The notes beneath the pieces were generated by a model. That model made no database searches. It had not been told where the DNA came from and saw only the letters and a list, made by a program, of their open reading frames with translations. Both the position numbers and the translations under genes were made by a program. From NCBI GenBank assembly GCA_030650425.1, contig JAUSED010000003.1, positions 71,903 through 135,902 on the forward strand: a stretch of DNA of 64,000 nucleotides. Direction: 5' to 3'. Shown here in pieces: positions 36,240 to 56,082 of this stretch; within the stretch, counting starts at the first letter, position 1; each line of letters begins with the position of its first letter. Origin of the DNA: Candidatus Omnitrophota bacterium. Lineage in GTDB: Bacteria; Omnitrophota; Gorgyraeia; Gygaellales; Profunditerraquicolaceae.

Positions 36240-38051
36240 GTGCAAATGATTGATCCTCTGGCATTATTTTTTCTTGCCGTAATTTTTATTGTTTCCCTGC
36301 CGTCAGCTATTTACTCCCTTGGTTACCTAAAGAACGAATATTCATCTGCCAAAATAACGCTTGCCTGGGTTTTGTTGGTTGCCTTTGTTTTATCCATGGC
36401 CTTGGTAGTCAGCGTAAGCAACGTTTTGGTTTTTCTTGTGTTTTGGGAGATTATGTCTTTGCTCTCCTATTTTCTGGTCGTCTTTGATACAAAACATGAG
36501 AAATCTATCCAAGCGGGAATGATTTACATTGTGATGACGCATATCGGCACCGCTTTTTTGATCGCCGCGTTTCTCTTAATGTATAAATACGCGCATTCCT
36601 TTGATTTCCTCGCCATAAAGAGCGCCTGCCTGAGTATGCCTGCTCAAACTAGAAATATTGTGTTTTTATTACTCTTGGTTGGTTTCGGTACTAAAGCCGG
36701 AATCGTGCCTTTGCATGTCTGGCTGCCCTATGCCCATCCGCAAGCTCCCAGCCATATTTCAAGTATTATGTCGGGAGTAATGATCAAAACTGCCATTTAT
36801 GGAATTATCCGGTTCGTAATATTTATACTGGGCGCAGGCTCTTCTTGGTGGGGGATATTAATTATAATCCTTGCCTTAATCTCTTGCCTGGTGGGCATTA
36901 TTTACGCGCTGATGGAGCGCGATATTAAAAAGCTGCTTGCCTATTCTAGTGTTGAGAATATGGGAATAATTTTATTAGGAGTAGGGCTTGCCCTCTTTTT
37001 CCAGAGCGTAAATATGCCTTATCTTGCGGTGTTTTCTCTAATCGCAGGATTATATCATTTAGTCAATCACGCGATTTTTAAGGGCCTGCTCTTTTTATGC
37101 GCCGGCAGCGTATATAAAGCTAGCGGGACACGGGATATCGAAAAATTAGGGGGGTTAATTAAGCAAATGCCATTGACAGCGGGATTTTTTCTCTTTGGCG
37201 CGATGGCTATTTCCGGCCTCCCGCCCTTAAACGGCTTTGTGAGTGAATGGCTGACTTTACAGGCCTTCTTTTTAGGGGCTTTTAATACAATAGGAGGAGT
37301 CAAACTTTTTTTAGGGATTTGCGCCGGCCTCTTGGCTTTAACCGGCGGTTTGGCCGCGGCTTGTTTTGTGAAAGCTTTTGGCTTAACTTTCCTCGCGCTT
37401 CCCAGAAGCCATTACGCTAAAGAGGCGCGGGAGGTTGCTTTATCGATGAAGCTGGGGATGTTTTGCTTAGCGCTTCTCGTGCTTATCTTCGGTTTAGCCG
37501 CAGCGATAATTATGAAATTACTGGCCAGAGTTGCAGGCGCGGCATGCGGCATTGATATAGGTAATATGGCATTCTTTTTAAATAATTTCACCCTTAGCCC
37601 GCAGGTGGGCAGGGGTATTTATCTTTCTGTGCCTTTACTGGCGATCTGGCTGATTGTTTTGGGAGTTCTTGGTTTTGCTATCTATAAGCTATTTTGGAAA
37701 GGTAAGTCAGTAATTTATAAAACTTGGGATTGCGGTTATTATAATATGGACTCGCGTAACGAATACACCGCGACTGCTTTTTCCAAGCCCTTTAGGATTG
37801 CCTTTAGTTTCTTTTTGCTCCCTTACCGCAAAACCCAGAAGATTAGAGACTCATTTTATCACGTTAAATCTTTTGCTTATGAAACGCATACGACCCTGAT
37901 TTTTAAAAAATATATCTATGATCCGGCAATTGCCTTAGTTTTAACTACAGCTAAGGCGATGAGGAGGATTCAACCGGGTAGTATCCACCTGTATTTAGGT
38001 TATATTTTTATCACCTTATTATTGTTAATTATCTTTATACACCAATTCTAA
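36240..38051 (+). CDS. EhrA-like antiporter-type membrane subunit (NuoL/MrpA/HyfB family)
   Basis: 603 aa, ~16 TM, conserved 'WLPDAH'-type motif 'WLPYAHPQAPSHIS'. Confidence 0.7.
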   Translation: MQMIDPLALFFLAVIFIVSLPSAIYSLGYLKNEYSSAKITLAWVLLVAFVLSMALVVSVSNVLVFLVFWEIMSLLSYFLVVFDTKHEKSIQAGMIYIVMTHIGTAFLIAAFLLMYKYAHSFDFLAIKSACLSMPAQTRNIVFLLLLVGFGTKAGIVPLHVWLPYAHPQAPSHISSIMSGVMIKTAIYGIIRFVIFILGAGSSWWGILIIILALISCLVGIIYALMERDIKKLLAYSSVENMGIILLGVGLALFFQSVNMPYLAVFSLIAGLYHLVNHAIFKGLLFLCAGSVYKASGTRDIEKLGGLIKQMPLTAGFFLFGAMAISGLPPLNGFVSEWLTLQAFFLGAFNTIGGVKLFLGICAGLLALTGGLAAACFVKAFGLTFLALPRSHYAKEAREVALSMKLGMFCLALLVLIFGLAAAIIMKLLARVAGAACGIDIGNMAFFLNNFTLSPQVGRGIYLSVPLLAIWLIVLGVLGFAIYKLFWKGKSVIYKTWDCGYYNMDSRNEYTATAFSKPFRIAFSFFLLPYRKTQKIRDSFYHVKSFAYETHTTLIFKKYIYDPAIALVLTTAKAMRRIQPGSIHLYLGYIFITLLLLIIFIHQF

Positions 38052-38971
38052 TGATGAAAATTATAATTATCCTGCAATTAGCTTTTTTTATCGCAGCCGC
38101 TCCTTTACTCAACGGCCTGATTACCAAAATAAAGAATAATCTTAGGCTGCGCAAGGGGCAAAGTATTTTCCAGCCGTATTATAATTTAGCTAAACTTTTT
38201 GCCAAGGGAGAGGTGGTTTCGGAAACCGCCTCTTGGATCTTCAAAGTTGCTCCTTGGGTAGTATTTTCTGCCACGCTTAGCGCGGCGTTACTCATTCCTG
38301 TATTTATATTCGCCAGTCCGGCACATCGCCTAGGCGATTTTTTGGCCTTAATTTTTATTTTTGCTTTAGCGCGCTTCTTTTTGGCGCTTGCGGCATTGGA
38401 TACCGGAAGTTCTTTTGGCGGGATGGGTTCATCAAGGGAGATGTTTATTTCCGGCTTGGCTGAGCCGGCGCTTTGTTTAGTCATCTTTAGCCTGTCTTTG
38501 CAATTCGGTTCAACGGATATTTCGGCGTTTAGCGGGATGCATAGGGTATCGGTTTCTTCCGTGGTGGCCGCGTTGGCATTATTCCTGGTGACCCTCGCGG
38601 AGACCTCGCGTATCCCGGTTGATAATCAGGAGACGCATCTGGAACTAACCATGGCGCATGAGGCAATGGTTTTGGAATATTCCGGCCCTTCTTTAGCCTT
38701 ACTCGAGTGGTCTGCCCACATTAAACAGATGATTTTCTTTTTCTTGATCGCTCAGATTGTTTTTCCGATTAGCCTGCCGTTTCTCGGGAGCTTAGTTCAA
38801 ACCTCTGTTTGGGTTATATGCTATTTAGCCAGAATAATGGTTATCGCTGTGATCGTAGCACTGGTCGAGGTTTCCGTAGCCAAAATGAGGTTGTTCAGGG
38901 TAGCGGATTTTCTGGGGTTTGCCTTTGTTTTAGGGGTGATTGCCAGCGTATGCGCTATACTAGGAGTTTAA
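38051..38971 (+). CDS. EhrB-like membrane subunit (NuoH/HycD family)
   Basis: 'RLRKGQSIFQPYYNLAKLF' NuoH-family N-terminal block; 8 TM. Confidence 0.7.
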   Translation: MMKIIIILQLAFFIAAAPLLNGLITKIKNNLRLRKGQSIFQPYYNLAKLFAKGEVVSETASWIFKVAPWVVFSATLSAALLIPVFIFASPAHRLGDFLALIFIFALARFFLALAALDTGSSFGGMGSSREMFISGLAEPALCLVIFSLSLQFGSTDISAFSGMHRVSVSSVVAALALFLVTLAETSRIPVDNQETHLELTMAHEAMVLEYSGPSLALLEWSAHIKQMIFFFLIAQIVFPISLPFLGSLVQTSVWVICYLARIMVIAVIVALVEVSVAKMRLFRVADFLGFAFVLGVIASVCAILGV

Positions 38972-38972
38972 T

Positions 38973-39608
38973 ATGCAAGGAATAATTTTATTCGCGGTTT
39001 TAGCTTCAACTTACCTTATGCTGATCGCTAAAAGGATGCCGGCCTTGATCCGGAGTTTTCGTTATCAATCATTTTGTTTATTCCTGGCGACCTTGCTCAT
39101 CGCGTTGAGTGAGCGCCAATTAGATTTGTATATTATTTCCGGCCTGTTATTTATTTTAAAAGTTTTGCTGATCCCGCAGTTATTGTACCGGATCTTAAGA
39201 AGGACGAATACAAAGGAAGATTTAGGGTTATTTATTAATCCCCAACTTTCTTTATTGTTGGCTTTGGTTTTTAGTTATTTATCATGGATCTTTGCCGCGC
39301 ATCTGGTTACTCCGGTTAAAGAAATCCAGATTAGTATCCTTGCCGTTACTTTTTTTATAATTTTAGCCGGGATATTTTTAATGATTTTCAGGATGACCGC
39401 GCTGGCCCAGATTACCGGGCTATTGGTGATGGAGAATGGCCTATTTCTGCTGGCTTCAGCGGTCTCGGGCGGAATGCCATTTTTCGTAGAGATCGCCATA
39501 TTCTTTGATGTGTTTATGAGCGTCTTGATTATGGGTTTTTTTGTCTATAAGATCAGCAAGCTATTTACACATATTGACGTGAATAAACTCTCGCGTCTAA
39601 GAGGATAA
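38973..39608 (+). CDS. EhrC-like small membrane subunit (HyfE family)
   Basis: 211-aa polytopic membrane protein in the conserved position. Confidence 0.5.
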   Translation: MQGIILFAVLASTYLMLIAKRMPALIRSFRYQSFCLFLATLLIALSERQLDLYIISGLLFILKVLLIPQLLYRILRRTNTKEDLGLFINPQLSLLLALVFSYLSWIFAAHLVTPVKEIQISILAVTFFIILAGIFLMIFRMTALAQITGLLVMENGLFLLASAVSGGMPFFVEIAIFFDVFMSVLIMGFFVYKISKLFTHIDVNKLSRLRG

Positions 39609-39612
39609 CCTG

Positions 39613-41070
39613 ATGCAGATATTTATCATTCTCGGAATACCAATTTTTCTTTCGCTGGGAGCGTTTATTTTCGGGAAGAAACGGTTTTTTGGGATAATTA
39701 ATTGCAGCGGCTATCTGGCAATCTTGTGCTGCAGCCTGATTTTATTTAAAGAAACGGTGTTTACCGGAAAGACTAAAGAGTTTTTTGGCTTTATCTATCT
39801 GGATGCCTTAAGCGCATTTTTTATTCTGGTTATTTCAGTGGTAGCTTTTGCTGCCGCGCTTTATTCCATCGGTTACATCCGAAAGGATATTCAACGAGGA
39901 GTTATAACTGAGAGCAAAGCGAGGGTTTATTATCTTTTTTTCAATCTTTTCTGTCTCTCGATGTTTTTTGTCCCCGCGCTGGATAACTTGGGTATGCTTT
40001 GGGTGGCTGTTGAAATGACCACGCTTATCTCGGCATTCCTGGTAGGGTTTTATAATTCCAAGGAATCCGTCGAGGCAGCCTGGAAATATATCATTATCTG
40101 CTCGGTGGGGATAATTTTCGCGCTTTTAGGTACGATTCTTTTTTCCTACGCCTTTTCCATCTCCGGATTAACGAAAAGCCTGAATTGGTCCGAGATTACC
40201 CCGGTCGCGCATATCTTGGATAAAAATATCCTGAAAGTAGCGTTTATCTTTATTCTCGTTGGATACGGGACTAAGGCGGGCCTTGCGCCGATGCATACCT
40301 GGCTGCCGGACGCCCACAGCCAAGCCGTTGCTCCGATTAGCGCGCTTCTCTCCGGGGTATTGCTCAAGACAGCTATTTACGCCATTTTAAGGTTCGGCAT
40401 AATTATTATTAAGAGCGTAGGCTTCGCGTATTTCGCGCATTTGATGATTCTCTTTGGCGCGATTTCATTGGTTATCTCAAGCGGTTTTATCCTGGTTCAG
40501 AAAGACTTGAAGCGGCTCCTGGCTTACAGCAGCATCGAGCATATCGGCATCATCGCAATCGGTTTTGGCCTGGGTTCGCCTTTAGCTATCGCCGGAGCAC
40601 TACTGCATATTTTTAACCACGCGGTAACCAAATCACTGATGTTTTTTGGCGCGGGTAATATTGTCAGCGCTTATAAAAAACATAATATGCACGCTATCCG
40701 GGGAGTAATTAAGGCCTTGCCTTTTACGGGGATGATGCTGCTTTTAGGGTGTTTCGCGCTTACCGGCTTTCCGCCATTCTCCATATTTATAAGCGAGATA
40801 ATGATTATCATCGCTGCTTTTACCAACGGCGCGTATTTTATCGGCGCTTTGTTGTTATTATTGCTTGCGGTAATTTTTGGAGCGTTCATTTATCATTTCG
40901 GAAGAATGCTTTTTGGCAATCTTCCTAAAAGTATGTCTGCGGCAGGGGAGCCGTTCAGCGGAAAGTTGGCGTTTTTGTTTTTACTCTTTTTGATCTGCGC
41001 TTTAGGGATAAGCTTGCCATTTATGAATAAGGATACGCTATGGATATTCCAACAGTTATTGCACGGATAA
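39613..41070 (+). CDS. EhrD-like antiporter-type membrane subunit (NuoM/N / HyfF family)
   Basis: 'GTKAGLAPMHTWLPDAHSQA' conserved antiporter motif. Confidence 0.7.
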   Translation: MQIFIILGIPIFLSLGAFIFGKKRFFGIINCSGYLAILCCSLILFKETVFTGKTKEFFGFIYLDALSAFFILVISVVAFAAALYSIGYIRKDIQRGVITESKARVYYLFFNLFCLSMFFVPALDNLGMLWVAVEMTTLISAFLVGFYNSKESVEAAWKYIIICSVGIIFALLGTILFSYAFSISGLTKSLNWSEITPVAHILDKNILKVAFIFILVGYGTKAGLAPMHTWLPDAHSQAVAPISALLSGVLLKTAIYAILRFGIIIIKSVGFAYFAHLMILFGAISLVISSGFILVQKDLKRLLAYSSIEHIGIIAIGFGLGSPLAIAGALLHIFNHAVTKSLMFFGAGNIVSAYKKHNMHAIRGVIKALPFTGMMLLLGCFALTGFPPFSIFISEIMIIIAAFTNGAYFIGALLLLLLAVIFGAFIYHFGRMLFGNLPKSMSAAGEPFSGKLAFLFLLFLICALGISLPFMNKDTLWIFQQLLHG

Positions 41071-42617
41071 GAAATAATTTTCCGGAGTTTAGCGAGCTTG
41101 CTAGCGCGCAAAACTATGCGGATGAGCTTAATATTAAGGTAAGTCCTCAGGATTTCAAGCATACCTGTCTTGCCTTGCATAAAATCCTTCCTTCTCCGGT
41201 GATGATGCTTTTTGCCCAGGATGAGCGCGCAGGTGAAGGGATTTTTAGGATTAATTCCGTATTCGTGGATTTTAAAAACAAAGAGTGGGTTATGGTGAGT
41301 ATGGATATCCCGCCGGAAAATCCATGTTTTGATTCTTTGGCCAAGAGCATCTATTCGGCCAGCCTTTTTGAAAGGGAGATTTGGGAGATGTTCGGCGTTG
41401 AACCAAAAGGCCATCCTGATCTCAGGAGATTGAGGCTGCATGATGAAGTTTGGCCAAAGGGGAATTATCCGTTACGCAAAGATTTCCAAAAAGTAGAGCC
41501 CGGGGACTTGAGCGATTATAAATTCAGCAGGGTAGAGGGAGAAGGGATATTTGAAGTTCCGGTTGGGCCTGTGCACGCCGGGATCATCGGCCCCGGGCAT
41601 TTCCGTTTTAGCGTTGCCGGAGAGCCGATTATTAGCTTAGAAACAAGGCTGGGGTTTAGCCATCGGGGAGTGGAAAAAATTTTTGAAGGAAAATCTTGTT
41701 TAGAGGCGGTTAGAATTTCAGAATGTGTTTCCGGTGATGCTTCTTTCGCGCATAGCCTGGCGTTTACTCAGGCGGCTGAGAAGATTTTCGGGATACAAAT
41801 ACCCGCGGCCGCGGCTTATTCAAGGGCTATCTTTTTAGAGCTTGAGCGGATGTATAATCATGTGAATGATCTCGGTGGAATAGCGCTGGATGCGGGTTTT
41901 AGCTTTCCGGCTGCCTACGCCTCGGTGATCAAGGAGGTGATTCTGCAACTAAACGCCCGGCTTAGCGGGAGCAGGTACCTTAGAAAAATTAACGCCATAG
42001 GCGGAATTTCAATTGGCCTAGACGAAACCAAAAAGCAGATGCTTCTTAGTTCCCTTAAAGAGCTAAAACGTGATTTTAAGGAGTTAGTTAAAATTTTGTA
42101 TTCCAGTGTTTCTTTCATGGACAGGATAGATACTACCGGTGTTTTACGCAAGAAGACCGCCGAAGATTTGGGGGTAACCGGCCTGGTTGCCCGCGCTTCG
42201 GGGATTCCCACGGATTTAAGGAAATATTTCCCCGGGGTATATAAAGAAGCTAAATTTAGAATGGCGATACAGGAATCCGGGGATGTTTTGGCACGTTTAC
42301 GCGTAAGGATTTTTGAATTTGAAGAATCATGCCGGCTGATTGAAGAATTTTCCGGAAAGCTGATTAAGGGTGAGGAGATTAAAGTTAACGCGGAGCTAAA
42401 GGGAGGAAGCGCCTTAGGTTATACAGAAGGATGGCGAGGCCCGGTTTTATATTGGCTTAAAACAGATACTAGAGGTTTAGTCACCAGGTGTAAGATTGTC
42501 GATCCATCTTTCCTTAACTGGCAGGGGCTTTCCTACGCAGTGTTGGGAAACATCATCCCTGATTTTCCGCTCTGTAATAAAAGCTTTGATTTGTCATATT
42601 CAGGGAATGATCTTTAA
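41040..42617 (+). CDS. EhrL-like fused NuoC-NuoD / hydrogenase large subunit homolog LACKING the [NiFe] cysteine ligands
   Basis: NuoC block 'FEREIWEMFGV'; L1 region 'RISECVSGDASFAHS' instead of RxCGxCxxxH; C-terminus 'VDPSFLNWQG' instead of DPCxxCxxH/R. Confidence 0.75.
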   Translation: MDIPTVIARIRNNFPEFSELASAQNYADELNIKVSPQDFKHTCLALHKILPSPVMMLFAQDERAGEGIFRINSVFVDFKNKEWVMVSMDIPPENPCFDSLAKSIYSASLFEREIWEMFGVEPKGHPDLRRLRLHDEVWPKGNYPLRKDFQKVEPGDLSDYKFSRVEGEGIFEVPVGPVHAGIIGPGHFRFSVAGEPIISLETRLGFSHRGVEKIFEGKSCLEAVRISECVSGDASFAHSLAFTQAAEKIFGIQIPAAAAYSRAIFLELERMYNHVNDLGGIALDAGFSFPAAYASVIKEVILQLNARLSGSRYLRKINAIGGISIGLDETKKQMLLSSLKELKRDFKELVKILYSSVSFMDRIDTTGVLRKKTAEDLGVTGLVARASGIPTDLRKYFPGVYKEAKFRMAIQESGDVLARLRVRIFEFEESCRLIEEFSGKLIKGEEIKVNAELKGGSALGYTEGWRGPVLYWLKTDTRGLVTRCKIVDPSFLNWQGLSYAVLGNIIPDFPLCNKSFDLSYSGNDL

Positions 42618-42620
42618 ATT

Positions 42621-43130
42621 ATGATAGATATACTAAAGAATAGAATTTTAAAAGGCATCGTTACCCGGCAGATTGAGCCGGAATTAGCGCAAGAGATAGA
42701 GGCGGTTGGCGCGGAATTAAGATCCCTGATTCAGCAAAGATTCGGCAGGTCTTTACATCTACGCGAAGTAGACACTGGTTCCTGCGCTGCCTGTGAATCG
42801 GAGATCATCGCGGCGAATAATCCTATTTACGACCTGCAGCGCTTCGGAATAAATTTCACCGCTTCTCCCCGCCACGCCGACGCGCTCTTAGTTACCGGCC
42901 CGGTCTCGAAAAATATGCTCGCGGCTTTAAAAAAGACTTACGCGGCTATGCCTGAACCCAAATTTGTGGTTACTTGCGGAGATTGCGCGCTGGATGGCGG
43001 TTCATTCAAAGATTCTTATTATGTCGAAGGAGGGGTAAAAAAAATATTACCGGTTGTTTTGCATATCCCCGGATGCCCTCCCAGCCCGCTGGTGATCATT
43101 AAAACATTGTTAGCCTTTTTGGTGGCCTAG
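42621..43130 (+). CDS. EhrS-like small subunit (NuoB / hydrogenase small subunit homolog, N2-type [4Fe-4S] cysteines retained)
   Basis: 'GSCAACESE', 'TCGDCALDGG', 'IPGCPP'. Confidence 0.75.
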   Translation: MIDILKNRILKGIVTRQIEPELAQEIEAVGAELRSLIQQRFGRSLHLREVDTGSCAACESEIIAANNPIYDLQRFGINFTASPRHADALLVTGPVSKNMLAALKKTYAAMPEPKFVVTCGDCALDGGSFKDSYYVEGGVKKILPVVLHIPGCPPSPLVIIKTLLAFLVA

Positions 43131-47703: not shown

Positions 47704-47716
47704 GGAAAGTAATTGA

Positions 47717-48817
47717 ATGGAAACCTATTTTTTAAAGAACGAAGACCTGTTGAAGTTTTATGAGCGCATAGCCCAGGGATATGAGTTGTATGTGCCTACC
47801 CGGGTTAAATCCCCGATTAAGAAGGATGAATGTGCCTGTAAGTCTGACCTTCCCACCGATGATTTTTTATTAAGAAAATTTTCGCAAATCGGCAAGGAAG
47901 AGATAGTCTTTGGTGATTACCGCGCGGTAGAGCCGACTCGCGCCTTTTTCACGCATTATAAAGAAGAGGTTTGTGAATATTTTGAAGGTAATGACGTAAG
48001 AGAGAAAAAAGAACGGCCCCTTGCTTTGTGCGGCATAAAGAATTGCGATTTATTTTCGTTAAAAGTACAGGATTTTGTATTTTTAGGCGGCAATGAAGCC
48101 GACCCGCTTTATAAGAAAAGAAGGGATGATGCTTTAATCATTGCCGGTGACTGCCCGTATTTCAAAGAAGTTTGTTTTTGCCGGGCATTTGATATCAATC
48201 CCTATCCTACCGAAGGCTTTGATTTTAACCTTTCTCCGTTAAATAACGGCTATCTCCTTGATGTAGCATCGCAAAAAGCGAAAATAATTGTTCTGTCTCT
48301 GAAAAAGCTGTTGATTCCGGCGACATTAGGACAACTTTCGGGAAGGGGGGCAAAGAGAGAGTCGGTAAATATGCGCATGGATGCGCATCTGGTGCCGCAT
48401 AAGATCCCTAAAAAAGAGGTTTTACAAGATATAGTTTTAGCAGGTTACAACTCAGGGGTTTGGGTTGATGAGATGCGCACCTGTGTTGAATGCAACGGTT
48501 GTGTTTTTATGTGCGATACCTGCCACTGTTTTTTACTTTCAGACGACACTTCTTCGGGAAATGCCAGAAAGCTGCGGCTTTGGGATGGCTGCCTGTTAAA
48601 AAATTTTACCAAGGTAGCCGGAGGAGCCAATCCTTTACGTTTACGTTATATGCGGCTGCGTAACCGCTATTTAAAGAAATTTGATTTTTTTGTTGAGAAT
48701 TTAGGGTTTCAAGCCTGCTGCGGTTGCGGCAGGTGTATAGAAGTCTGCCCCGGGAAAATAGATATCCGCCGGATATTACGAAGATTAAATGAAGAAAAAC
48801 ATATACCAACCGGTTAA
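47717..48817 (+). CDS. Fe-S subunit, sulfhydrogenase beta (HydB) / anaerobic sulfite reductase AsrA-like
   Basis: Multiple Cys clusters 'CVECNGCVFMCDTCHC', 'CCGCGRCIEVCPG'. Confidence 0.55.
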   Translation: METYFLKNEDLLKFYERIAQGYELYVPTRVKSPIKKDECACKSDLPTDDFLLRKFSQIGKEEIVFGDYRAVEPTRAFFTHYKEEVCEYFEGNDVREKKERPLALCGIKNCDLFSLKVQDFVFLGGNEADPLYKKRRDDALIIAGDCPYFKEVCFCRAFDINPYPTEGFDFNLSPLNNGYLLDVASQKAKIIVLSLKKLLIPATLGQLSGRGAKRESVNMRMDAHLVPHKIPKKEVLQDIVLAGYNSGVWVDEMRTCVECNGCVFMCDTCHCFLLSDDTSSGNARKLRLWDGCLLKNFTKVAGGANPLRLRYMRLRNRYLKKFDFFVENLGFQACCGCGRCIEVCPGKIDIRRILRRLNEEKHIPTG

Positions 48818-49607
48818 GGCTGTCATCGAAGAAATCATCGAAGAGACAGCCACGATCAAGACTTTCCGGATTAGGCCGGAGGTAGAATTTAGCTTTGCTA
48901 CCGGGCAATTCATCGAAGTGACTGTGCCGGGGGTAGGGGAAGCGCCTTTTACCCCTTCTTCTGATCCGGGAGTCAAGGATAGGCTGGATCTCACGATAAT
49001 GAAAGCAGGCGAGGTTACCTCTAAATTACATAGTATGGGTAAAGGCGGCCTGCTTGGTATCCGCGGGCCCTATGGTAAGGGGTATCCTTTGGATCAATTT
49101 AAAGGAAAAGATATCCTGATTGTCGGCGGCGGCGTGGGCCTGGCGCCCTTACGTTCGTTATTATTCAGCCTTTTTTCCGGGCTTGATCAATACAACAAAG
49201 TTGTCTTACGTTACGGCGCGCGTTCTCCGGCAGATATAGTTTATAAAGCACTCCTTCCTGAATGGGCTAAGCAGGATAAAGTTGATCTTTTAACCAGCGT
49301 TGATGTAGGTGATGCTGGCTGGCAGGGAAATGTGGGGTTGGTGACTACTATCTTAGGCGCTGCCCCGGTAGATTTCGCCAGCGCTATCGGTATAGTTTGC
49401 GGCCCGCCGATTATGATGAAATTCGTTACTTTAAAATTGCTGGATTTAGGTTTTAAGCCGTGCGATATATATTTATCCATGGAGAAGAGTATGTCCTGCG
49501 GCCTGGGTAAATGCGGGCACTGCCGGATCGGGAAATATTACGCCTGTAAAGACGGCCCGGTGTTTACCTATGAACAATTAAAGGATATCCATGACATTTG
49601 GGACTAA
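48789..49607 (+). CDS. FAD/NAD(P)H-binding subunit with C-terminal [2Fe-2S] (HydG/AsrB/PyrK-like)
   Basis: 'ILIVGGGVGLAPL'; 'CGLGKCGHCRIG'. Confidence 0.7.
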   Translation: MKKNIYQPVKAVIEEIIEETATIKTFRIRPEVEFSFATGQFIEVTVPGVGEAPFTPSSDPGVKDRLDLTIMKAGEVTSKLHSMGKGGLLGIRGPYGKGYPLDQFKGKDILIVGGGVGLAPLRSLLFSLFSGLDQYNKVVLRYGARSPADIVYKALLPEWAKQDKVDLLTSVDVGDAGWQGNVGLVTTILGAAPVDFASAIGIVCGPPIMMKFVTLKLLDLGFKPCDIYLSMEKSMSCGLGKCGHCRIGKYYACKDGPVFTYEQLKDIHDIWD

Positions 49608-49611
49608 AGGC

Positions 49612-49668
49612 GAAACAGTTTCCGATCCAAAGCGGAAACTGTTTCCGAGCCAATCGGGAAACAGTTTC
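49612..49668. promoter_or_regulatory. Three tandem palindromes GGAAAC-N-GTTTCC at ~21-22-bp spacing (candidate operator)
   Basis: 'cgaaacagtttccg', 'cggaaactgtttccg', 'gggaaacagtttct' read directly between the hydG-like stop and the ferredoxin start. Confidence 0.4.
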
Positions 49669-49675
49669 TAAGCTT

Positions 49676-50176
49676 ATGCTTATGAAGAGGCTATTTATAG
49701 ACTTAGAGATCTGTAATAAATGCAAAGAGTGTAAGGTTGCCTGCGATTATTTTTATCATCCGCAGAATAACGGGGTTACTTCTTTACGTGAATATGCCAC
49801 CTTTGCCACGATCTGCCGGCATTGTGAAGAAGCGCCTTGCGTGCATGCCTGCTATCATAATGCCTTGGAGCGTGCCTCTGATGGCCACATTAAGCGCTAC
49901 AAAATGCGCTGCACAAGTTGTAAATCCTGTTCAGTGGCTTGCCCGTTTGGGATCATCTACCAGGATTTTATCCCTTACCTTGATTCTAAATGCGATTATT
50001 GTGTAGGTAAAGCTGCAAAAATGCCTGAATGCTCATTTAGCTGCCCGGAAAAAGCCATAGAGGTAAAAGAGGTAGAAGAGAACCTTGAACAAGATATTTA
50101 TTTTGTGGGAGAACATCTGGCAGTGCATACACCTAGATGGTCAAGAGAGGATATACAGCTTCCTAGAAAGAAATGA
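49676..50176 (+). CDS. Poly-ferredoxin-like 4Fe-4S protein (start uncertain)
   Basis: 'CNKCKECKVACD', 'CRHCEEAPCVHAC', 'CTSCKSCSVACP', 'CDYCVGK...CSFSCP'. Confidence 0.6.
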   Translation: MLMKRLFIDLEICNKCKECKVACDYFYHPQNNGVTSLREYATFATICRHCEEAPCVHACYHNALERASDGHIKRYKMRCTSCKSCSVACPFGIIYQDFIPYLDSKCDYCVGKAAKMPECSFSCPEKAIEVKEVEENLEQDIYFVGEHLAVHTPRWSREDIQLPRKK

Positions 50177-51084
50177 AATATATTCTTTACTACTTAATAT
50201 TCCCGGGTTTTTTATTCAGTTCAATAGTGGGACTCTTAGCCTGTTGGGTTGACAGGAAAGTTACCGCGCGCTTACAGTGGAGGGTTGGCCCGCCGTGGCA
50301 TCAGAATTTCACCGATCTAGTAAAATTGTTAGGTAAGGAAGTGATTGTGCCCGAAAGCGCAAAGTTAACCTTTTTACTTTCACCTTATCTTGGATTGATT
50401 AGCGTGGTATTAGTTTGCACCGGATTAGGCAGGATAATCATTTTACCGCTGGATAGTTTCGGAGTAGATTTAATCGTATTCTTTTATCTTTTGACTGTTC
50501 CGGCAATAGCTCTGATTATCGGAGCATCGGCTTCAAGAAACCCATTGGCTTCGGTGGGGGCGTCAAGAGAAGCCAAACTCATCCTGGCTTATGAACTGCC
50601 TTTTATTTTGGCAATCATTGTTGTGGTAATCAAAAGTAGAGGCGCAATACAAATAGGCCAGATTATCCAATATCAGATGATCTTTGGTTCAAACCTTTTC
50701 TCTATCTCAGGATTTTTAAGCTTCATTGCCGCCATTTTTTGCATTCAGGCAAAGCTAGGGACGGGCCTTTTTGATATTGCTGAGGCGGATCAGGAGATTA
50801 TGTGCGGTACTTTGATTGAATACTCGGGGCTCCCCCTGGCAATCTTTAAACTGACCAAGGCGCTCATGCTTTATATTGTCCCGCTTTTTATCATTGTTTT
50901 ATTTCTAGGCCGCGATTTAAGCCCGGTATTCTTAACCGCCAAATATTTGATGTTGTTAGTGATCATCATTTTGTTTAAAAATACAAATCCGCGTTTGCGT
51001 ATTGATCAGGCCTTAAGGTTCTTCTGGAGGATACCGACGCTTCTGGCGGGAGCAGCTGTGGTGTTAGCGATATGCGGATTATAA
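50173..51084 (+). CDS. Ech/Mbh hydrogenase membrane subunit (NuoH/EchB/HycD family)
   Basis: 'KVTARLQWRVGPP' NuoH-family N-terminal motif. Confidence 0.8.
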   Translation: MKYILYYLIFPGFLFSSIVGLLACWVDRKVTARLQWRVGPPWHQNFTDLVKLLGKEVIVPESAKLTFLLSPYLGLISVVLVCTGLGRIIILPLDSFGVDLIVFFYLLTVPAIALIIGASASRNPLASVGASREAKLILAYELPFILAIIVVVIKSRGAIQIGQIIQYQMIFGSNLFSISGFLSFIAAIFCIQAKLGTGLFDIAEADQEIMCGTLIEYSGLPLAIFKLTKALMLYIVPLFIIVLFLGRDLSPVFLTAKYLMLLVIIILFKNTNPRLRIDQALRFFWRIPTLLAGAAVVLAICGL

Positions 51085-51085
51085 T

Positions 51086-51511
51086 ATGGATATAAGAAAA
51101 AAAGCCTTAACGAAGTCCATTTGGGTATTTCATGTAAGCGCAGGCTCATGCAATAACTGCGACATAGAAATATTCGATTGTTTTACCCCCCGGTTTGATG
51201 TCGAGCGTTTGGGCATTCAGCTTGCCGGTTCAGTTCGTCATGCCGACGCGCTCTTGATCACGGGAGTAATCAACAAAAAAACCATCCCCATCGTGAAAAA
51301 GATTTACGAACAGGCGCCCAAGCCCTGTATGGTGATCGCCTGCGGCATCTGCGCTAATTCGCAGCATATGTTCAGGTTTGGTTATAATGTGGAAAAACCC
51401 TTGGATAAAATACTGCCGGTTGATGTCTATATTCCGGGTTGTCCGCCTAAACCCGAAGCGATAATTTCAGGCATTGTGAAGTTGATAGATAAGCTAAAGA
51501 AAGGTAAGTAG
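51086..51511 (+). CDS. [NiFe] hydrogenase small subunit (NuoB/EchC-like)
   Basis: 'GSCNNCDIE', 'ACGICANS', 'IPGCPP'. Confidence 0.85.
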   Translation: MDIRKKALTKSIWVFHVSAGSCNNCDIEIFDCFTPRFDVERLGIQLAGSVRHADALLITGVINKKTIPIVKKIYEQAPKPCMVIACGICANSQHMFRFGYNVEKPLDKILPVDVYIPGCPPKPEAIISGIVKLIDKLKKGK

Positions 51512-51515
51512 GCTT

Positions 51516-51944
51516 ATGGATATGCGGGATAGGATTAAAGAGAAGCTGCAGGATAAGCTAAGCGATTGGCTTGAGCCCTCTATTAAAAGGGTATATTTCA
51601 GCATAGACAAAAAAGATATCTTTAAGGTGACACAGGTATTGTTTAAAGAATTACAGCTAAGGTTTATTACGGCTTCAGCCGTGGATAACCCCGATTCTCT
51701 GGGAATTGTTTATCACTTTAGCAATGACCCCGCCGGCGAGGTTTATTCCGTGCGCGTTTTACTAGAGGATAAAATTAAACCCGAGATCCAATCGATCAGC
51801 CCTATTTTTCCGGCTGCGGAGTGGATCGAGCGCGAGATTTGGGAGATGTTCGGGATCAATTTTATCGGGCATCCTAATTTAAAGAAGCTTCTACTTGCCG
51901 ATGATTGGCCGGAGGGCGAGTATCCCTTGAGGAATAAAAAATGA
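51516..51944 (+). CDS. Hydrogenase NuoC-like subunit (EchD-like)
   Basis: 'AAEWIEREIWEMFGINFIGHP'. Confidence 0.8.
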   Translation: MDMRDRIKEKLQDKLSDWLEPSIKRVYFSIDKKDIFKVTQVLFKELQLRFITASAVDNPDSLGIVYHFSNDPAGEVYSVRVLLEDKIKPEIQSISPIFPAAEWIEREIWEMFGINFIGHPNLKKLLLADDWPEGEYPLRNKK

Positions 51945-53149
51945 GCCATAAAATCATCGTACCCATAGGGCCGTATCATCCATTGCAGGACGAGCCGGAG
52001 TTTTTCCAGCTTTATGTGGAAGGAGAAAAGGTAGTTGATATTGATATTATTATCGGGTATAACCACCGCGGGATAGAGAAACTTTCTGAATCCAAGCATT
52101 TTGATCAAGTTCCGTTTTTAGTCGAACGTATCTGCGGTATTTGTTCGTCAAGCCATCCCTACGCTTATTGCTTAGCGGTAGAGAATATTTTAGGCGGAGA
52201 GATAAATATTGTCCCCGAGAAAGCGCTGTATATCCGCACAATTATCGATGAATTGCAGCGGATTCACAGCCATCTTTTGTGGCTGGGCCTGGCCGGGCAC
52301 TTTATAGGATATAACACTGTTTGGATGTGGGCCTGGAAATACCGCGAGCCGGTATTGGATATGTTTGAAATGGTAACCGGTAACCGGAACAATTATGCTA
52401 TGTTTAAAATCGGCGGGGTCAGGCGCGATATAAAAGACGAAGATATCCCCCTATTAAGAAAAATGCTCGATGAATTACTTCCTGCCGTAGATTTGTTTCG
52501 CGGGGCGGTAATGGATGATCCGGTAATTAAGATGAGATTGAAAGATGTCGGGACTTTAACTTATCAGCAGGCAGTTGATTGGTGCGTGGTTGGGCCGACT
52601 GCCCGCGCCTCCGGAGTTAATATCGATATCCGTAGAGACGACCCTTACGGGGTAACCGAGCGGCTTGATTGGAATGTGATTTTGGAAAAAGACGGTGATA
52701 TATTTTCTAAGACCATAGTCAGGATTCTTGAACTTTACGAGAGTATAAGCATTATCCGGCAGTCTCTGGATAAGATGCCTAAGTCCGGGGTAATTGATGC
52801 CGAGGTCAAAGATATCCCCGAAGGCGAAGGTATCGGCAGGGTTGAAGCTCCCAGAGGCGAATGTTTCCACTATATCAAAAGTGACGGAACAAATCAACCA
52901 GTCAGGCATAAGGTTCGCTCCCCGAGCTTTATGAATGTGGCTTCGGATAAAGTATCTGCCGTAGGAGGGACAATCTCTGACGCGACGATTACTTTAGCCG
53001 CGGTTGATCCCTGTTATTGCTGCACAGAGCGAGTGGCGGTGATCAACAAAATAAATAATCGCAAGGTGATGAATGGCTGGGATCTGGTTAAGCTCTCTCA
53101 AGAAAAGACCCTTAAGCTAAAGGAGGGTTACCATGGCAGACCTAAATAG
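51941..53149 (+). CDS. Group 4 [NiFe] hydrogenase large subunit (EchE/MbhL-like) with intact Ni-Fe ligands
   Basis: 'RICGICSSSHPYAY' and C-terminal 'DPCYCCTER'. Confidence 0.85.
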   Translation: MSHKIIVPIGPYHPLQDEPEFFQLYVEGEKVVDIDIIIGYNHRGIEKLSESKHFDQVPFLVERICGICSSSHPYAYCLAVENILGGEINIVPEKALYIRTIIDELQRIHSHLLWLGLAGHFIGYNTVWMWAWKYREPVLDMFEMVTGNRNNYAMFKIGGVRRDIKDEDIPLLRKMLDELLPAVDLFRGAVMDDPVIKMRLKDVGTLTYQQAVDWCVVGPTARASGVNIDIRRDDPYGVTERLDWNVILEKDGDIFSKTIVRILELYESISIIRQSLDKMPKSGVIDAEVKDIPEGEGIGRVEAPRGECFHYIKSDGTNQPVRHKVRSPSFMNVASDKVSAVGGTISDATITLAAVDPCYCCTERVAVINKINNRKVMNGWDLVKLSQEKTLKLKEGYHGRPK

Positions 53150-53750
53150 TATTAAGGATAAGATTATCCGCATGAGCAGAAGCGCGTCTACTATGTGGCA
53201 GCTTACTTACGGCGCCTTTATTGAGCACGACGTGGAGTTGATCGCTAAGGCGCTGGAAGAGGAGAATAAACTTAACTCTTTGGAAGAAGAGATTAACAAA
53301 AGCATTATTGATTTAGGGCGTACTAAATTTACACGGGAGGAGAAGGCGCGGGTAATAGCTTACGCCGATATCGCGGCGGATTTTGAGTTAATCGGGGACT
53401 ATTGTAAAGATATCTTGGAAAGAATCCAGATTAAAATAGAAGAGAAGCTCCTTTTTAGCGAGGATGCCGTTAAAGAATATAAAGAGCTCTATAATAAAAC
53501 AAAAGACGCCCTTGAAGAAGTGGTTTTTGTCCTGGAAAAGGACAATCTGGCGTTGATCAAAGAGGTGTTGCGCGAAGAGGAACATATTGACGGCCTTGTA
53601 GATAAATATCGCCAACATCACAGCCAGAGGATACTTGCCGGAGCGTGCACTCCGATGAGCTGTAATATGTTTTTAAATATGCTGGATTTTACGGCCGCGG
53701 TTTATTATCATATTAAAAAAATCGCTAAAAGCCTGCTTAAAATAAAATGA
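53133..53750 (+). CDS. PhoU-domain protein embedded in the hydrogenase operon
   Basis: Two helical repeats with 'ADFELIGDYCKDILERI' and 'LDFTAAVYYHIKKIAKSL' PhoU-like motifs. Confidence 0.45.
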   Translation: MADLNSIKDKIIRMSRSASTMWQLTYGAFIEHDVELIAKALEEENKLNSLEEEINKSIIDLGRTKFTREEKARVIAYADIAADFELIGDYCKDILERIQIKIEEKLLFSEDAVKEYKELYNKTKDALEEVVFVLEKDNLALIKEVLREEEHIDGLVDKYRQHHSQRILAGACTPMSCNMFLNMLDFTAAVYYHIKKIAKSLLKIK

Positions 53751-55462
53751 TGAGCTTAAGCTTATTTTTTCTTTTTTCTCTTCCTTTCATCGGAGGCCTG
53801 TCCCTATTTTTTGTCGGCCGGCAGGATAATTTACGGAAGAATTTAAGCTTAGTTATATTTCTATTGAGTTTGTGTTCGTCCGTTTATTTATTATTCAGGC
53901 CCGAGGCCTCTTGGAGCAGGTATATTTTTAACGGTTATACCCTTACGCTTGGCCTGGGTAAGCTTAGCCGCCTGATTCTTTTTTCCGCCAACCTCATCAG
54001 CGCGTTAATTTGCCTGTATTCTAAAGATTATATTTCCGTCAAGCGTGGATATTACTCATGGTTTCTTTGGTTGTTAGCTCTCTCTAACCTACAGATATTG
54101 GCAACAGATTTTATTCTGTTTGTTCTTTCTTGGGTTGGTTCAATCTTTATACTTTACGCGCTGCTTAATCCGGGTTCACGTTCCAGCGCCAGGAAAGCCG
54201 CGACGATCTTAGGTTTCTCCTGCCTTTGTTTTATGATTGGCGCGTATATTTATTGCAGATTCAGCGGTTCAACCAGTATGTCAGCCGGTATGAGCATGGT
54301 TTTGAACAGGCCGATTTGCTGGTTGGCTTTTAGCCTTATGCTGATCGGCGCTTTGGCCAAGACAGACGCGTGGCCTTTTCATACCTGGGTTCCTGCCGCA
54401 AGCGAGAGCGCGCCGGTTACGGTTATGGCTATTTTACCCGCATCTTTGGACAAATTAATCGGCGTTTATTTATTATCACGGATATGTTTGGATTTATTTA
54501 TTTTGAACGGTTTTGTAGTTGCTATTCTGCTGATTATCGGCAGTCTTACGATCATCATCGCCGCGATGCTGGCTCTTACGCAGCATGACTTAAGAAAGAT
54601 GCTCTCATATTATACTATCAGCCAGGCAGGTTATATGGTTTTAGGCATTGCTACAGCGAATGCGGTAGGAATAGTAGGCGCGATATTTCATATGTTTAAT
54701 AATGCCATCTATCAGAATGGGCTTTTTCTTGTTGGGGGCGCGGTAGAGAAGGAAAAGGGGAGTTGGGATCTGGGGAAATTAGGCGGCCTGGCCCGTTATA
54801 TGCCGCTTACCTTTGTTAGCGGTTTAGTCTTCGCGCTCTCTATTTCAGGCGTTCCTCCTTTTAACGGTTTTGCTTCTAAGTGGATGATTTATCAGGGGGT
54901 CTTCTTAGGATTGACTTCATCCGGGCATTTTTGGTTACGTTTTGTTTATCTGTTTGCCCTGGTCGCGGCAATGTTTGGCAGCACATTTACCTTAGCCAGC
55001 TTCCTAAAATTCATTCACGCCATCTTCCTGGGACAGGATAATCATCCCGAAAAGAAACCCTCCGGCGAAACTTACCGGGGGATGCTTATTCCTTTATTGA
55101 TTTTATCCGGGCTTTGCATCATCTTGGGCGTATTCTCGAATTATTTTATTAAAAACCTCCTCGCCCCGTCTTTTTCATTCGTTTTAGATTATGGCGGAAG
55201 ATGGAATAGCCTATTTGTCGCTTTATTTTTTGCCGGCGCTTTAATTTTGGGATTTATTTTATGGCGCCTGACTTCCGGCGCCAGGAAGGTGAGAGAGGAC
55301 GGTTTTTTTATAGGAGGAGAGTCAGTCTCTGGCCGCCCTGTTTTTCCGGCCACGGAGTTTTATAAAACTATCGAAGAAATCCCCTTATTCCGCGCAGCTT
55401 ACAATTTTGTTAAATCTAAAGAATGGGATCTAAGGCGGATTATTAAAAGAAAGAAAGAATAA
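53747..55462 (+). CDS. Antiporter-like membrane subunit (NuoL/EchA/MbhH family)
   Basis: 'WPFHTWVPAASESAPVTV' motif; ~16 TM. Confidence 0.75.
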   Translation: MMSLSLFFLFSLPFIGGLSLFFVGRQDNLRKNLSLVIFLLSLCSSVYLLFRPEASWSRYIFNGYTLTLGLGKLSRLILFSANLISALICLYSKDYISVKRGYYSWFLWLLALSNLQILATDFILFVLSWVGSIFILYALLNPGSRSSARKAATILGFSCLCFMIGAYIYCRFSGSTSMSAGMSMVLNRPICWLAFSLMLIGALAKTDAWPFHTWVPAASESAPVTVMAILPASLDKLIGVYLLSRICLDLFILNGFVVAILLIIGSLTIIIAAMLALTQHDLRKMLSYYTISQAGYMVLGIATANAVGIVGAIFHMFNNAIYQNGLFLVGGAVEKEKGSWDLGKLGGLARYMPLTFVSGLVFALSISGVPPFNGFASKWMIYQGVFLGLTSSGHFWLRFVYLFALVAAMFGSTFTLASFLKFIHAIFLGQDNHPEKKPSGETYRGMLIPLLILSGLCIILGVFSNYFIKNLLAPSFSFVLDYGGRWNSLFVALFFAGALILGFILWRLTSGARKVREDGFFIGGESVSGRPVFPATEFYKTIEEIPLFRAAYNFVKSKEWDLRRIIKRKKE

Positions 55463-56082
55463 TGCGGCTACCCAAGGTAAGAGAATTAAAAGAGGCAATA
55501 AAATCGTTATTTAGTCCGGCTTACACCAGCGATTTTCCGCGTAAGCCGCATATTCCCTACGAGCGGTTCCGGGGAAGGCCATACTTTCACGAAGAGGATT
55601 GCACAGGCTGCACTGCCTGCGCTCAGGTCTGCCCGGCTAAGGCAATCGAGATCAATGATGAGATAAAAGGAGCTCTGGCTAAAAGAAAGTTGACTGTGCA
55701 TTGGGACATTTGCATATTTTGCGGGCAATGCCAGGCGAATTGCCTGACTGCAAAGGGCATCATGCTTTCGCGGGAGTTTGATTTAGCCACGACGGAAAAG
55801 AGGGAGGACTTAAAGCAGACAATCGAGAAAGAATTTGTGCTTTGCGAATCTTGCGCTGAGCCGATTGTTCCTTATGATCAATACGTCTGGGTAGCTAAAA
55901 AATTAGGCCCGTTATCTTTTACTAACGCGTCGCTATTATTGTTTTATCTAAGAAGCATCGGGTTGGCCTTAAAAGAAAGGATCCACCCCGGTCCCGGCAG
56001 TAAACCCGCGGCAATCAACCGCTCCACGCGCATCAAGACCCTTTGTCCCCGCTGCCGGCGCGAGGCAGTGCTTAAATCATAA
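55462..56082 (+). CDS. 2x[4Fe-4S] ferredoxin subunit (NuoI/EchF-like) with extra Cys-rich C-terminal extension
   Basis: 'CTGCTACAQVCP', 'CIFCGQCQANC', plus 'CESCAEP...CPRCRRE'. Confidence 0.75.
   Translation: MRLPKVRELKEAIKSLFSPAYTSDFPRKPHIPYERFRGRPYFHEEDCTGCTACAQVCPAKAIEINDEIKGALAKRKLTVHWDICIFCGQCQANCLTAKGIMLSREFDLATTEKREDLKQTIEKEFVLCESCAEPIVPYDQYVWVAKKLGPLSFTNASLLLFYLRSIGLALKERIHPGPGSKPAAINRSTRIKTLCPRCRREAVLKS

Follow-up and report, generated by a model that had tools for sequence, protein, structure and literature searches.

Hydrogenases of group 4, which are bound to the membrane, are usually described as oxidizing ferredoxin, formate, or CO. Here we analyze a group 4 [NiFe] hydrogenase locus from a Candidatus Omnitrophota bacterium whose genes are joined to those for a putative NAD(P)(H)-dependent flavoprotein. 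The locus lies at 47717-56082 in a stretch of 64,000 nucleotides (contig JAUSED010000003.1 of assembly GCA_030650425.1, positions 71,903 to 135,902), which we call the window; all coordinates are given in its numbering. An earlier reading of the sequence alone (the original prediction) had proposed that this cluster encodes an Ech-type hydrogenase that is linked to NAD(P)H. We lean toward a membrane hydrogenase that is linked to NAD(P)(H) and is built like formate hydrogenlyase, with a flavoprotein related to the beta and gamma subunits of sulfhydrogenase in place of FdhF. An assignment to the Ech type is not supported.

In formate hydrogenlyase 1 (FHL-1) of Escherichia coli (HycBCDEFG plus FdhF; group 4a; structure 7Z0S), electrons pass from FdhF through HycB, HycF, and HycG to HycE, and HycC and HycD lie in the membrane. 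HycB is a bound subunit in the solved complex, and it wires FdhF to HycF. Judging by homology, the enzyme of the window would have the same layout: a soluble dehydrogenase, a HycB-type connector, and then NuoI-like, NuoB-like, and Ni-Fe subunits. As in FHL-1, the membrane part consists of only one NuoH-like and one antiporter-like subunit. The large subunit carries a C-terminal extension, which in FHL is removed by HycI; the HycB-like protein has HycB as its best match; and the second-best match of the large subunit is HycE. However, the dehydrogenase of FHL-1 is a molybdoenzyme (FdhF), and the one in the window resembles the beta and gamma subunits of sulfhydrogenase I (SHI). Also, NuoC and the large subunit are separate proteins in the window instead of one fused protein, the genes are in another order, a gene for a PhoU-domain protein is inserted, and the large subunit is nearer to MbhL than to HycE.

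The other characterized systems each share some features with the locus. The 14-subunit Mbh-Mrp complex of Pyrococcus furiosus (group 4d; 6CFW) contains the closest solved relative of the large subunit, and relatives of the window cluster carry genes for MbhD/E and MnhB, C, D, E, F, and G in an Mbh-like order. But Mbh takes electrons directly from ferredoxin, and it has no beta, gamma, or HycB-type subunits. In contrast to both Mbh and the group 4g enzymes of Omnitrophota, the window cluster and its seven closest relatives have no Mrp small subunits and a single antiporter-like gene. Ech (EchABCDEF; group 4e) has the same six kinds of core subunits as the window cluster, two in the membrane and four hydrophilic. 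Unlike Ech, the window cluster adds three genes for electron input and the PhoU gene, its core genes are in the order B-C-D-E-(PhoU)-A-F instead of echABCDEF, and its large subunit has an extension of 38 amino acids. Finally, P. furiosus SHI (soluble; group 3b; 9NEZ) contains the closest solved homologs of the beta- and gamma-like proteins, whose cluster, FAD, and NAD(P) motifs are kept. In SHI, these subunits dock on the cytosolic group 3b alpha and delta subunits, whereas in the window, they are encoded with a membrane hydrogenase and a HycB-type connector.

Clusters of this kind have been described before, and the enzymes are known from sequence only. In Kosmotoga olearia, Saganbacteria RX5A, Elusimicrobia, and the group 4b clusters, the genes for the beta-like, gamma-like, and HycB-like proteins (the trio) lie directly upstream of those for NuoH, NuoB, NuoC, and the large subunit, as in the window. 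Unlike the window cluster, these clusters have a full Mrp module, and some of them have an Fdh-like molybdopterin protein; the window has neither and adds PhoU. Matheus Carnevali et al. (2019) described a group 4 hydrogenase of Saganbacteria that is encoded with cooF, asrA, and asrB as a possible oxidoreductase module, and whose nearest relatives are in Zixibacteria and Omnitrophica (PMC6349859). Méheust et al. (2020) named a "Mbh-Mrp-oxidoreductase type" in Elusimicrobia (10.1101/765248), and a 2026 paper reported homologs of SHI beta and gamma and an Fdh-like protein in group 4b clusters and suggested bifurcation (PMC13582414). So, the joining of beta/gamma-like genes to a group 4 hydrogenase, which the original prediction presented as unusual, was already on record. 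What we add is that the trio stays the same where the membrane arm differs, that there is a naturally minimized form without Mrp, that a PhoU gene is inserted, and that the system is linked to the cultured bacterium K. olearia, for which transcript data exist and which opens the question to direct experiment.

The cluster consists of ten abutting or overlapping genes on the plus strand (Table 1), which we identified from the list of open reading frames and a scan with Pfam and NCBIfam. The original prediction had placed six Ech-like core subunits, two upstream genes resembling sulfhydrogenase beta and gamma, and a poly-ferredoxin here, and all of these were found where it had put them. The gamma-like gene starts 29 nt before the end of the beta-like gene, and the NuoH-like gene starts 4 nt before the end of the HycB-like gene.

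The beta- and gamma-like proteins are related to the subunits of sulfhydrogenases, but at a distance. The only match of the beta-like protein in the PDB is SHI beta (9nez_B, 1.4e-27), with its cysteine motifs aligned. Its NCBIfam scores were 154.9 bits for ShyB (the cutoff is 690), 122.7 for HydB (cutoff 750), and 91.9 for AsrA (cutoff 323). For the gamma-like protein, the best match in the PDB is SHI gamma (9nez_C, 3e-51): the FAD and NAD motifs align, and the C-terminal [2Fe-2S] motif, CGxGKCGHC...C, is kept. AsrB was its top match in NCBIfam (222 bits; cutoff 288.6), followed by ShyC (178.7; cutoff 600) and HydG (174.2; cutoff 650), and PyrK-type proteins matched as well. As in the beta and gamma subunits of sulfhydrogenases I and II, the cluster-binding cysteines are present in beta, and the FAD, NAD(P), and [2Fe-2S] domains are present in gamma. 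Because the scores are far below the cutoffs for equivalogs, the two proteins are homologs, rather than orthologs, of the sulfhydrogenase subunits.

The third member of the trio, the HycB-like protein, has 16 cysteines arranged in four cluster motifs. Its best match in the PDB is HycB of E. coli FHL (7z0s_B, 6.6e-13), and its next matches are the HycB4 and HycB3 chains of HDCR. When called mechanically, the open reading frame begins with TTG at 49598, but the homologs align from the ATG at 49676, and the ortholog from K. olearia aligns from 49682.

To see how widely the trio accompanies the hydrogenase, we scanned one genome per GTDB species and obtained 80 loci whose large subunits are 65-91% identical to the one in the window. 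Most of these loci are from Omnitrophota, and a few are from Elusimicrobiota. In fifty-four of them, 4.4 kb or more of sequence precedes the large-subunit gene, and in every one of the 54, the beta, gamma, and HycB-like genes are directly upstream of NuoH-B-C-D, while the flanking genes further upstream vary. Across the loci, the median gaps within the cluster range from -7 to +3 nt, as compared to 125 nt upstream of the beta gene. Since 54 of 54 loci keep the arrangement, the link between beta/gamma and the hydrogenase is not due to chance.

The trio is also found outside of this group. We searched 1.8 billion cluster representatives for the nearest outside relatives and inspected three of them. 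In the cluster of K. olearia (57% identity; Kole_0555-0575), the trio and the hydrogenase core are followed by a full Mrp module and then by NuoI, HycI, and HypFCD. The second, a metagenomic locus (L086; 5808-12011; 46% identity of the large subunit), encodes the trio along with NuoH, NuoB, NuoC, NuoI, and the large subunit, and its cluster is devoid of antiporter-like genes; its enzyme would be a membrane-anchored hydrogenase, perhaps without ion pumping. In the third, also metagenomic (L087; 1666-11209; 56% identity), a gene for an Fdh-like molybdopterin-binding protein lies between the gamma and HycB-like genes and the large subunit is a fused NuoC/D, so that it matches the clusters described for Saganbacteria and group 4b. 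These three clusters have differing membrane arms, yet all keep the trio, so the trio is the constant part of the system, whereas the membrane arm varies and ranges from nothing up to a full Mrp module. The link is specific to this clade, as a more distant group 4 cluster (L088; 45% identity) lacks the trio.

Two details of the K. olearia locus are worth recording. We considered whether a 135-amino-acid open reading frame upstream of the cluster might belong to the system, but it has no homolog in any other locus, and we rejected it. Also, Kole_0567 (L085, 11194-13988) is annotated as a pseudogene spanning Proton_antipo_M, MbhD, and MnhB domains. The DNA contains three intact open reading frames of 599, 178, and 152 amino acids, as in the Omnitrophota locus L075, and the pseudogene flag is probably an annotation artifact. 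The metagenomic contig of L086 also encodes PorV and proteins with Por-secretion tails, with Rnf genes upstream.

The large subunit was predicted to be canonical, and both of its metal-binding motifs are present: RICGICSSSH at residues 63-72 (nt 52127-52156) and DPCYCCTER at residues 356-364 (nt 53006-53032). All four of the nickel-binding cysteines are invariant in 91 of 91 aligned relatives. The combination of NuoB-, NuoC-, NuoD-, NuoI-, and NuoH-like genes with both CxxC motifs is that of the group 4 (complex-I-related) hydrogenases. More than 100 proteins from metagenome-assembled genomes of Candidatus Omnitrophota are 82-94% identical to this subunit, and an identical one is present in the Logan assembly of run SRR13727527.

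As for which type of group 4 enzyme this is, the large subunit is most similar to MbhL (6cfw_L, 291 bits) and then to HycE (7z0s_E, 255 bits). We also built a neighbor-joining tree of 91 large subunits, which is based on distances only roughly, has an arbitrarily chosen outgroup, and includes no EchE or CooH references. The nearest relatives in it all belong to clusters of the Mbh-Mrp type. The window groups with L001-L007, its seven closest relatives, in a terminal clade whose members all lack the Mrp small subunits and have one antiporter-like gene. Elsewhere in the surrounding Omnitrophota clade, and in the outgroups, there are two or three antiporter-like genes along with MbhD/E and MnhB, C, D, E, F, and G; for instance, the Mrp small subunits are present in the L075 and K. 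olearia clusters. We searched the whole window and found no genes for Mrp small subunits. Thus, the loss in the window and L001-L007 extends to the entire Mrp module, with MbhD/E, MnhB-G, and either one or two of the antiporter-like genes. Because the clade without Mrp is terminal and the surrounding clade and the outgroups keep Mrp, the tree indicates that the single-antiporter form is a derived reduction within an Mbh-Mrp-type clade. Nine independent assemblies show this form, which is therefore no artifact of assembly.

The resemblance to Ech would then have arisen by reduction, as the nearest relatives are of the Mbh-Mrp type. The six core subunits alone would fit Ech, with two in the membrane and four hydrophilic, but the beta, gamma, and HycB-like genes in 54 of 54 loci are additional subunits for electron input, which Ech does not have. 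Furthermore, the large subunits of group 4e (Ech-type) enzymes naturally lack a C-terminal extension (PMC7294309), whereas the one in the window extends for 38 amino acids past DPCYCCTER, and the window encodes a HycI-type protease. These features, the similarity to MbhL and HycE, and the gene order speak against the Ech type. Comparing the large subunits, as the original prediction had suggested, yielded a phylogeny with Mbh-Mrp kin nearest to the window, and the label "bona fide Ech-type" is not supported. The membrane-bound [NiFe] hydrogenases of Omnitrophota have been typed by HydDB as 4g (PMC10066038, PMC8542988).

The predicted protease for the large subunit was also where it was expected, about 8 kb away and beside a transporter. 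It scored 99.5 bits against TIGR00072 (cutoff 47.45) and 98.1 bits against TIGR00142 (HycI), which is below the cutoff of 119.1. Its gene starts 8.7 kb past the end of the large-subunit gene and abuts a gene for an SNF-family transporter (62317-63879). In K. olearia and in deep-branching relatives, the HycI gene is directly after the cluster. No hyp genes were found elsewhere in the window.

The original prediction called for a test of whether the genes from beta to NuoI are cotranscribed, and RNA-seq data from K. olearia support this for the orthologs from beta through the large subunit. Pollo et al. (2017) ran Rockhopper on these data, and their Table S2 lists Kole_0568-0575 as one unit of eight genes (624178..618398; PMC5674127). 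By its coordinates, this unit comprises a small upstream open reading frame, the beta, gamma, HycB, NuoH, NuoB, and NuoC-like genes, and the large subunit. Expression of the eight genes, in reads per kilobase per million mapped reads (RPKM), was 30-200 and covaried over four temperatures (PMC5674127, Table S3).

In the window itself, a scan for hairpins found no terminator with a U-tract inside 47717-56082. The first strong terminator-like hairpin past the cluster has a stem of 15 bp (Table 1), and no comparable hairpin with a U-tract was found between 43158 and 57809. Promoter-like and terminator-like sites were about as numerous as in shuffled sequence (31 versus 28.1 and 18 versus 18.5, respectively), so apart from this one hairpin, which stands out, the scan is uninformative about operon boundaries. 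A scan of the whole window with Rfam gave no family above threshold.

Cotranscription in the window is less secure across the 68-nt spacer between the gamma and HycB-like genes, which the original prediction had overlooked, as it had the PhoU gene. The spacer contains three copies of GAAACNGTTTC, which are the only perfect matches to this sequence in the window. The copies can form two alternative hairpins of 12-13 bp (the predicted fold is -32.5 kcal/mol, with z = -3.7), with no U-tract after them. Long hairpins of unrelated sequence are at the same junction in 22 of 62 related loci, including L001, L002, L005, L006, L036, L048, L053, and L064, and had z = -4 to -6 in most of the loci that we tested. 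In most of the other loci, or roughly half of the total, these two genes lie end to end or overlap. We considered whether the spacer might mark a unique boundary between modules, but hairpin spacers are found at five other junctions of the cluster as well (in 5-17 loci each; the gamma/HycB junction has them most often), and we rejected it as a specific marker. The junction hairpins often consist of short tandem repeats on one arm with their complements on the other. Possible origins or roles include RNA stability, attenuation, or a mobile palindromic element. The functional link between the trio and the hydrogenase does not depend on how the spacer behaves.

The PhoU gene lies between the genes for the large subunit and the antiporter-like subunit and overlaps both. 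A PhoU gene is at the same position in 28 of 49 related loci and in 10 of the 11 loci that have three antiporter-like genes. It is absent from the clusters of K. olearia, L086, and L087 and of deep-branching relatives. The protein might be a regulatory or gating subunit, or it might handle metals.

The data show the gene content, the cofactor motifs, the homologies, the synteny, the derived loss of Mrp, and the cotranscription of the K. olearia orthologs. Beyond this, we infer that the beta/gamma proteins are physically attached to the hydrogenase, as well as a path for the electrons, the nucleotide used, the direction of the reaction, and its coupling to ions. NAD(P)H would reduce the FAD of the gamma-like subunit, which would pass electrons to its [2Fe-2S] cluster, then to the [4Fe-4S] clusters of the beta-like subunit, and then to the four clusters of the HycB-like connector. 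From there, they would enter the NuoI-like subunit (two clusters) and then the NuoB-like subunit (one cluster) and end at the Ni-Fe site of the large subunit, where protons would be reduced or H2 oxidized. (The NuoB-like subunit has seven cysteines, at residues 22, 25, 32, 81, 86, 89, and 119, which are enough for a single NuoB-type cluster.) The NuoH-like subunit and the single antiporter-like subunit would couple the redox reaction to the movement of ions across the membrane. The large subunit would be made as a precursor and trimmed by the HycI-type protease that is encoded downstream. In the lineage of the window, the ancestral Mrp sodium/proton module was lost, leaving a core the size of Ech or Hyc with two membrane subunits and the PhoU protein.

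The textbook potentials for the NAD(P)H and H2 couples are -320 and -414 mV, from which we calculated a standard free-energy cost of about +18 kJ/mol for making H2 with NAD(P)H. As the couple is near equilibrium, the hydrogenase is most likely reversible. Formation of H2 would need either the pull of a very low H2 concentration or the push of the ion gradient; in the other direction, oxidation of H2 could pump ions while making NAD(P)H.

Of the readings that we considered, an NAD(P)H-linked membrane hydrogenase, as originally predicted, fits best with the cofactor motifs, the synteny in 54 of 54 loci, and the transcription unit of K. olearia, and we think that it is somewhat more probable than all of the others together. 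Several observations weigh against it. Members of the clade are known only through their sequences. The beta- and gamma-like proteins score so far under the equivalog cutoffs that their substrate specificity is not assured. The genome is compact, with genes tightly packed on one strand (nearly all of the long open reading frames from 36240 to the end of the window are on the plus strand), and just 13 nt separate the beta gene from the yqeY-like gene upstream, so adjacency in the window alone is weak evidence. The hairpins at 49608-49675 separate the gamma and HycB-like genes and could partially uncouple their transcription, and similarly strong hairpins in the window are at gene ends (in the intergenic regions at 45201-45240, 25015-25045, 36037-36079, 36166-36228, and 57829-57880). 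The RPKM values of the K. olearia orthologs are low during pyruvate fermentation (PMC5674127), so this is not the main H2-evolving enzyme of that bacterium. Papers on Omnitrophota draw these enzymes as ferredoxin-dependent group 4g Mbh that are linked to Mrp (PMC8542988, PMC10066038). And the NuoI-like subunit could accept ferredoxin directly, by analogy with Mbh and Ech.

These last points lead to a different explanation, that the hydrogenase is an ordinary ferredoxin-dependent, H2-evolving ion pump of the Mbh or Ech kind, and that beta, gamma, and the HycB-like protein make up an independent soluble enzyme that is merely encoded beside it. This enzyme, for instance an NAD(P)H:ferredoxin or NAD(P)H:acceptor oxidoreductase, would supply or deplete the ferredoxin pool that the hydrogenase also uses. 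The assignment of the group 4g enzymes to ferredoxin in the literature, the role of the NuoI-like subunit as the entry point for ferredoxin in Mbh and Ech, and the hairpin spacer between the two sets of genes in the window and in 22 of 62 relatives all fit with this. However, co-occurrence in 54 of 54 loci, across phyla and despite complete remodeling of the membrane arm, is tighter than we would expect for a soluble enzyme that merely cooperates with the hydrogenase, and the gamma and HycB-like genes touch or overlap in roughly half of the loci. Moreover, the HycB-type connector is a bound subunit in the solved FHL structure, not a free ferredoxin, and in K. olearia the genes form one transcription unit. 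We therefore consider a separate soluble enzyme to be unlikely.

The enzyme might instead use two donors or acceptors at once, with ferredoxin reacting at the NuoI- or HycB-like subunit and NAD(P)(H) at gamma, in a confurcating, bifurcating, or branched scheme. AlphaFold models of related group 4b clusters have a three-way branched chain of clusters (PMC13582414, from 2026), L087 encodes an Fdh-like subunit between its gamma and HycB-like genes, and using both donors would solve the unfavorable energetics of forming H2 from NAD(P)H. But the window cluster has no Fdh-like third arm. Its only flavin site is the FNR/PyrK-type FAD of gamma, which in SHI is a simple NADPH dehydrogenase, and neither a second flavin nor any known bifurcating site is encoded in the cluster. 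Also, the ion-coupling membrane arm offers another way to balance the energetics. Simultaneous use of two donors thus seems rather improbable for this locus. We also considered whether beta and gamma belong to a system for reducing sulfite or polysulfide, either AsrAB-like or literally a sulfhydrogenase, because AsrB is the top NCBIfam match of gamma, AsrA also matches beta, and earlier authors annotated the homologs as asrA and asrB (PMC6349859). The original prediction had named clustering of the homologs with sulfite reductases only as one outcome that would count against it. But neither AsrC nor another siroheme subunit is encoded in or beside the window cluster or those of K. olearia, L086, or L087; all of the Asr scores are below their cutoffs; and for beta, ShyB and HydB outscore AsrA, and the sole PDB match is SHI beta. 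A role in sulfur reduction is very doubtful, and we rejected the reading as a sulfite reductase.

If the hydrogenase is linked to NAD(P)(H), then the NAD(P)(H) pool would be coupled directly to H2 and to the ion gradient, and models of energy metabolism for Omnitrophota, Elusimicrobiota, and other uncultured anaerobes, in which these enzymes are now drawn as ferredoxin-dependent, would change. It would also be a second, independent gain of a nucleotide-oxidizing head by complex-I-like membrane machinery. A bolder form of this idea, which we put forward tentatively and would not bet on, is that the enzyme is an ion-coupled NAD(P)H:H+ oxidoreductase, or a "hydrogen-evolving complex I," whose head was built from beta/gamma and HycB independently of NuoEFG; the window would hold its minimal form, which has two membrane subunits and no Mrp module, with PhoU as a new regulatory or assembly subunit where the antiporter-like subunit joins.

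Table 1. Features of the window that are discussed in the text
Feature	Position	Strand	Evidence or remarks
Six-gene Ehr cassette (Hyf-like)	36240-43130	+	
Sulfhydrogenase-I beta (HydB/ShyB)-like Fe-S subunit, 366 aa, 20 Cys	47717-48817	+	Pfam Fer4_22, 3e-25
Sulfhydrogenase-I gamma (HydG)/AsrB-like subunit, 272 aa	48789-49607	+	FAD_binding_6, NAD_binding_1, DHODB_Fe-S_bind (2Fe-2S)
Intercistronic spacer, 68 nt, with three GAAACNGTTTC palindromes	49608-49675	+	
HycB/CooF-like ferredoxin, four [4Fe-4S] motifs, 166 aa	49676-50176	+	Pfam Fer4_11
NuoH/HycD/EchB-like membrane anchor, 303 aa	50173-51084	+	Pfam NADHdh, 1.2e-57
NuoB-like hydrogenase small subunit, 141 aa	51086-51511	+	Pfam Oxidored_q6, 5e-27
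NuoC-like subunit, 142 aa	51516-51944	+	Pfam Complex1_30kDa, 1.2e-28
[NiFe] large subunit (NuoD-like), 402 aa	51941-53149	+	Pfam Complex1_49kDa and NiFeSe_Hases
PhoU-domain protein, 205 aa	53133-53750	+	Pfam PhoU, 1e-18; PDB 1xwm_A, 2.5e-6
Single antiporter-like (MbhH/MrpA/NuoL/EchA-like) membrane subunit, 571 aa	53747-55462	+	Pfam Proton_antipo_M, 8e-45
NuoI/HycF/EchF-like subunit, two [4Fe-4S] motifs, 12 Cys, 206 aa	55462-56082	+	Pfam Fer4_7
MFS_3 (EntS-like) transporter	56087-57283	+	Pfam MFS_3, 1.3e-68; starts 4 nt after the NuoI-like gene
First strong terminator-like hairpin past the cluster, 15-bp stem	57838-57871		Reads on both strands
HycI-type maturation endopeptidase, 152 aa	61866-62324	+	Pfam HycI, 3.6e-14

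Among the remaining genes of the cluster, the one antiporter-like subunit matched MrpA (6z16_A) and MbhH (6cfw_H) in the PDB, and the NuoI-like subunit matched the NCBIfam model "formate hydrogenlyase complex iron-sulfur subunit" (1e-24). The MFS_3 transporter gene trails the NuoI-like gene in many of the Omnitrophota loci, but not in the deep-branching ones. It is a conserved neighbor and a possible member of the hydrogenase system.

The original prediction also pointed to a second group-4-like module within 20 kb, an Ehr cassette whose large subunit lacks the metal-binding cysteines, and this too was found. The cassette encodes HyfB-, NuoH-, HyfE-, and HyfF-like membrane subunits, a fused NuoC/D-like large subunit, and a NuoB-like subunit. 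All four of the Ni-Fe cysteines are replaced (C to S and C to A in the first motif; C to S and C to S in the second), so this complex cannot be a hydrogenase; a group-4-like set of subunits with such a large subunit is what defines Ehr. The large subunit is 70-86% identical across Omnitrophota, and there is a 100% match on an Omnitrophota contig of 359 kb. We found no reason to attach meaning to its location near the hydrogenase. In three other Omnitrophota genomes, the neighbors of the cassette are unrelated, and among the closest relatives of the hydrogenase locus, the cassette was not seen upstream of mnmA. Based on these comparisons, we rejected a functional tie between the two; the cassette is a self-contained, independent unit and its proximity incidental. 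In one of the other genomes (L082, 12205-21578), genes for a Rex-like regulator, for NuoE-like and NuoF/GltD-like proteins, and for two [FeFe] hydrogenases come after the Ehr cassette. This may hint at the redox partner of Ehr, but the arrangement does not recur in L083 or L084.

Several of the gene-end hairpins in the window share a GGACCGTTTCC or GGACAC-like core and resemble the palindromes of the hydrogenase spacer. They may be the usual terminators of this genome or a family of small palindromic elements.

Farther upstream, the window contains a cluster of oxidative and nitrosative stress genes that is typical of an anaerobe (21611-30339). It encodes an Rrf2 regulator, a 4Fe-4S protein, an HD protein, and a hybrid-cluster protein; a peroxiredoxin that is fused to pterin-4a-carbinolamine dehydratase, an FNR-type reductase, and a flavodiiron protein; and a PNPOx-like protein, rubrerythrin, and a thioredoxin-reductase-like protein.

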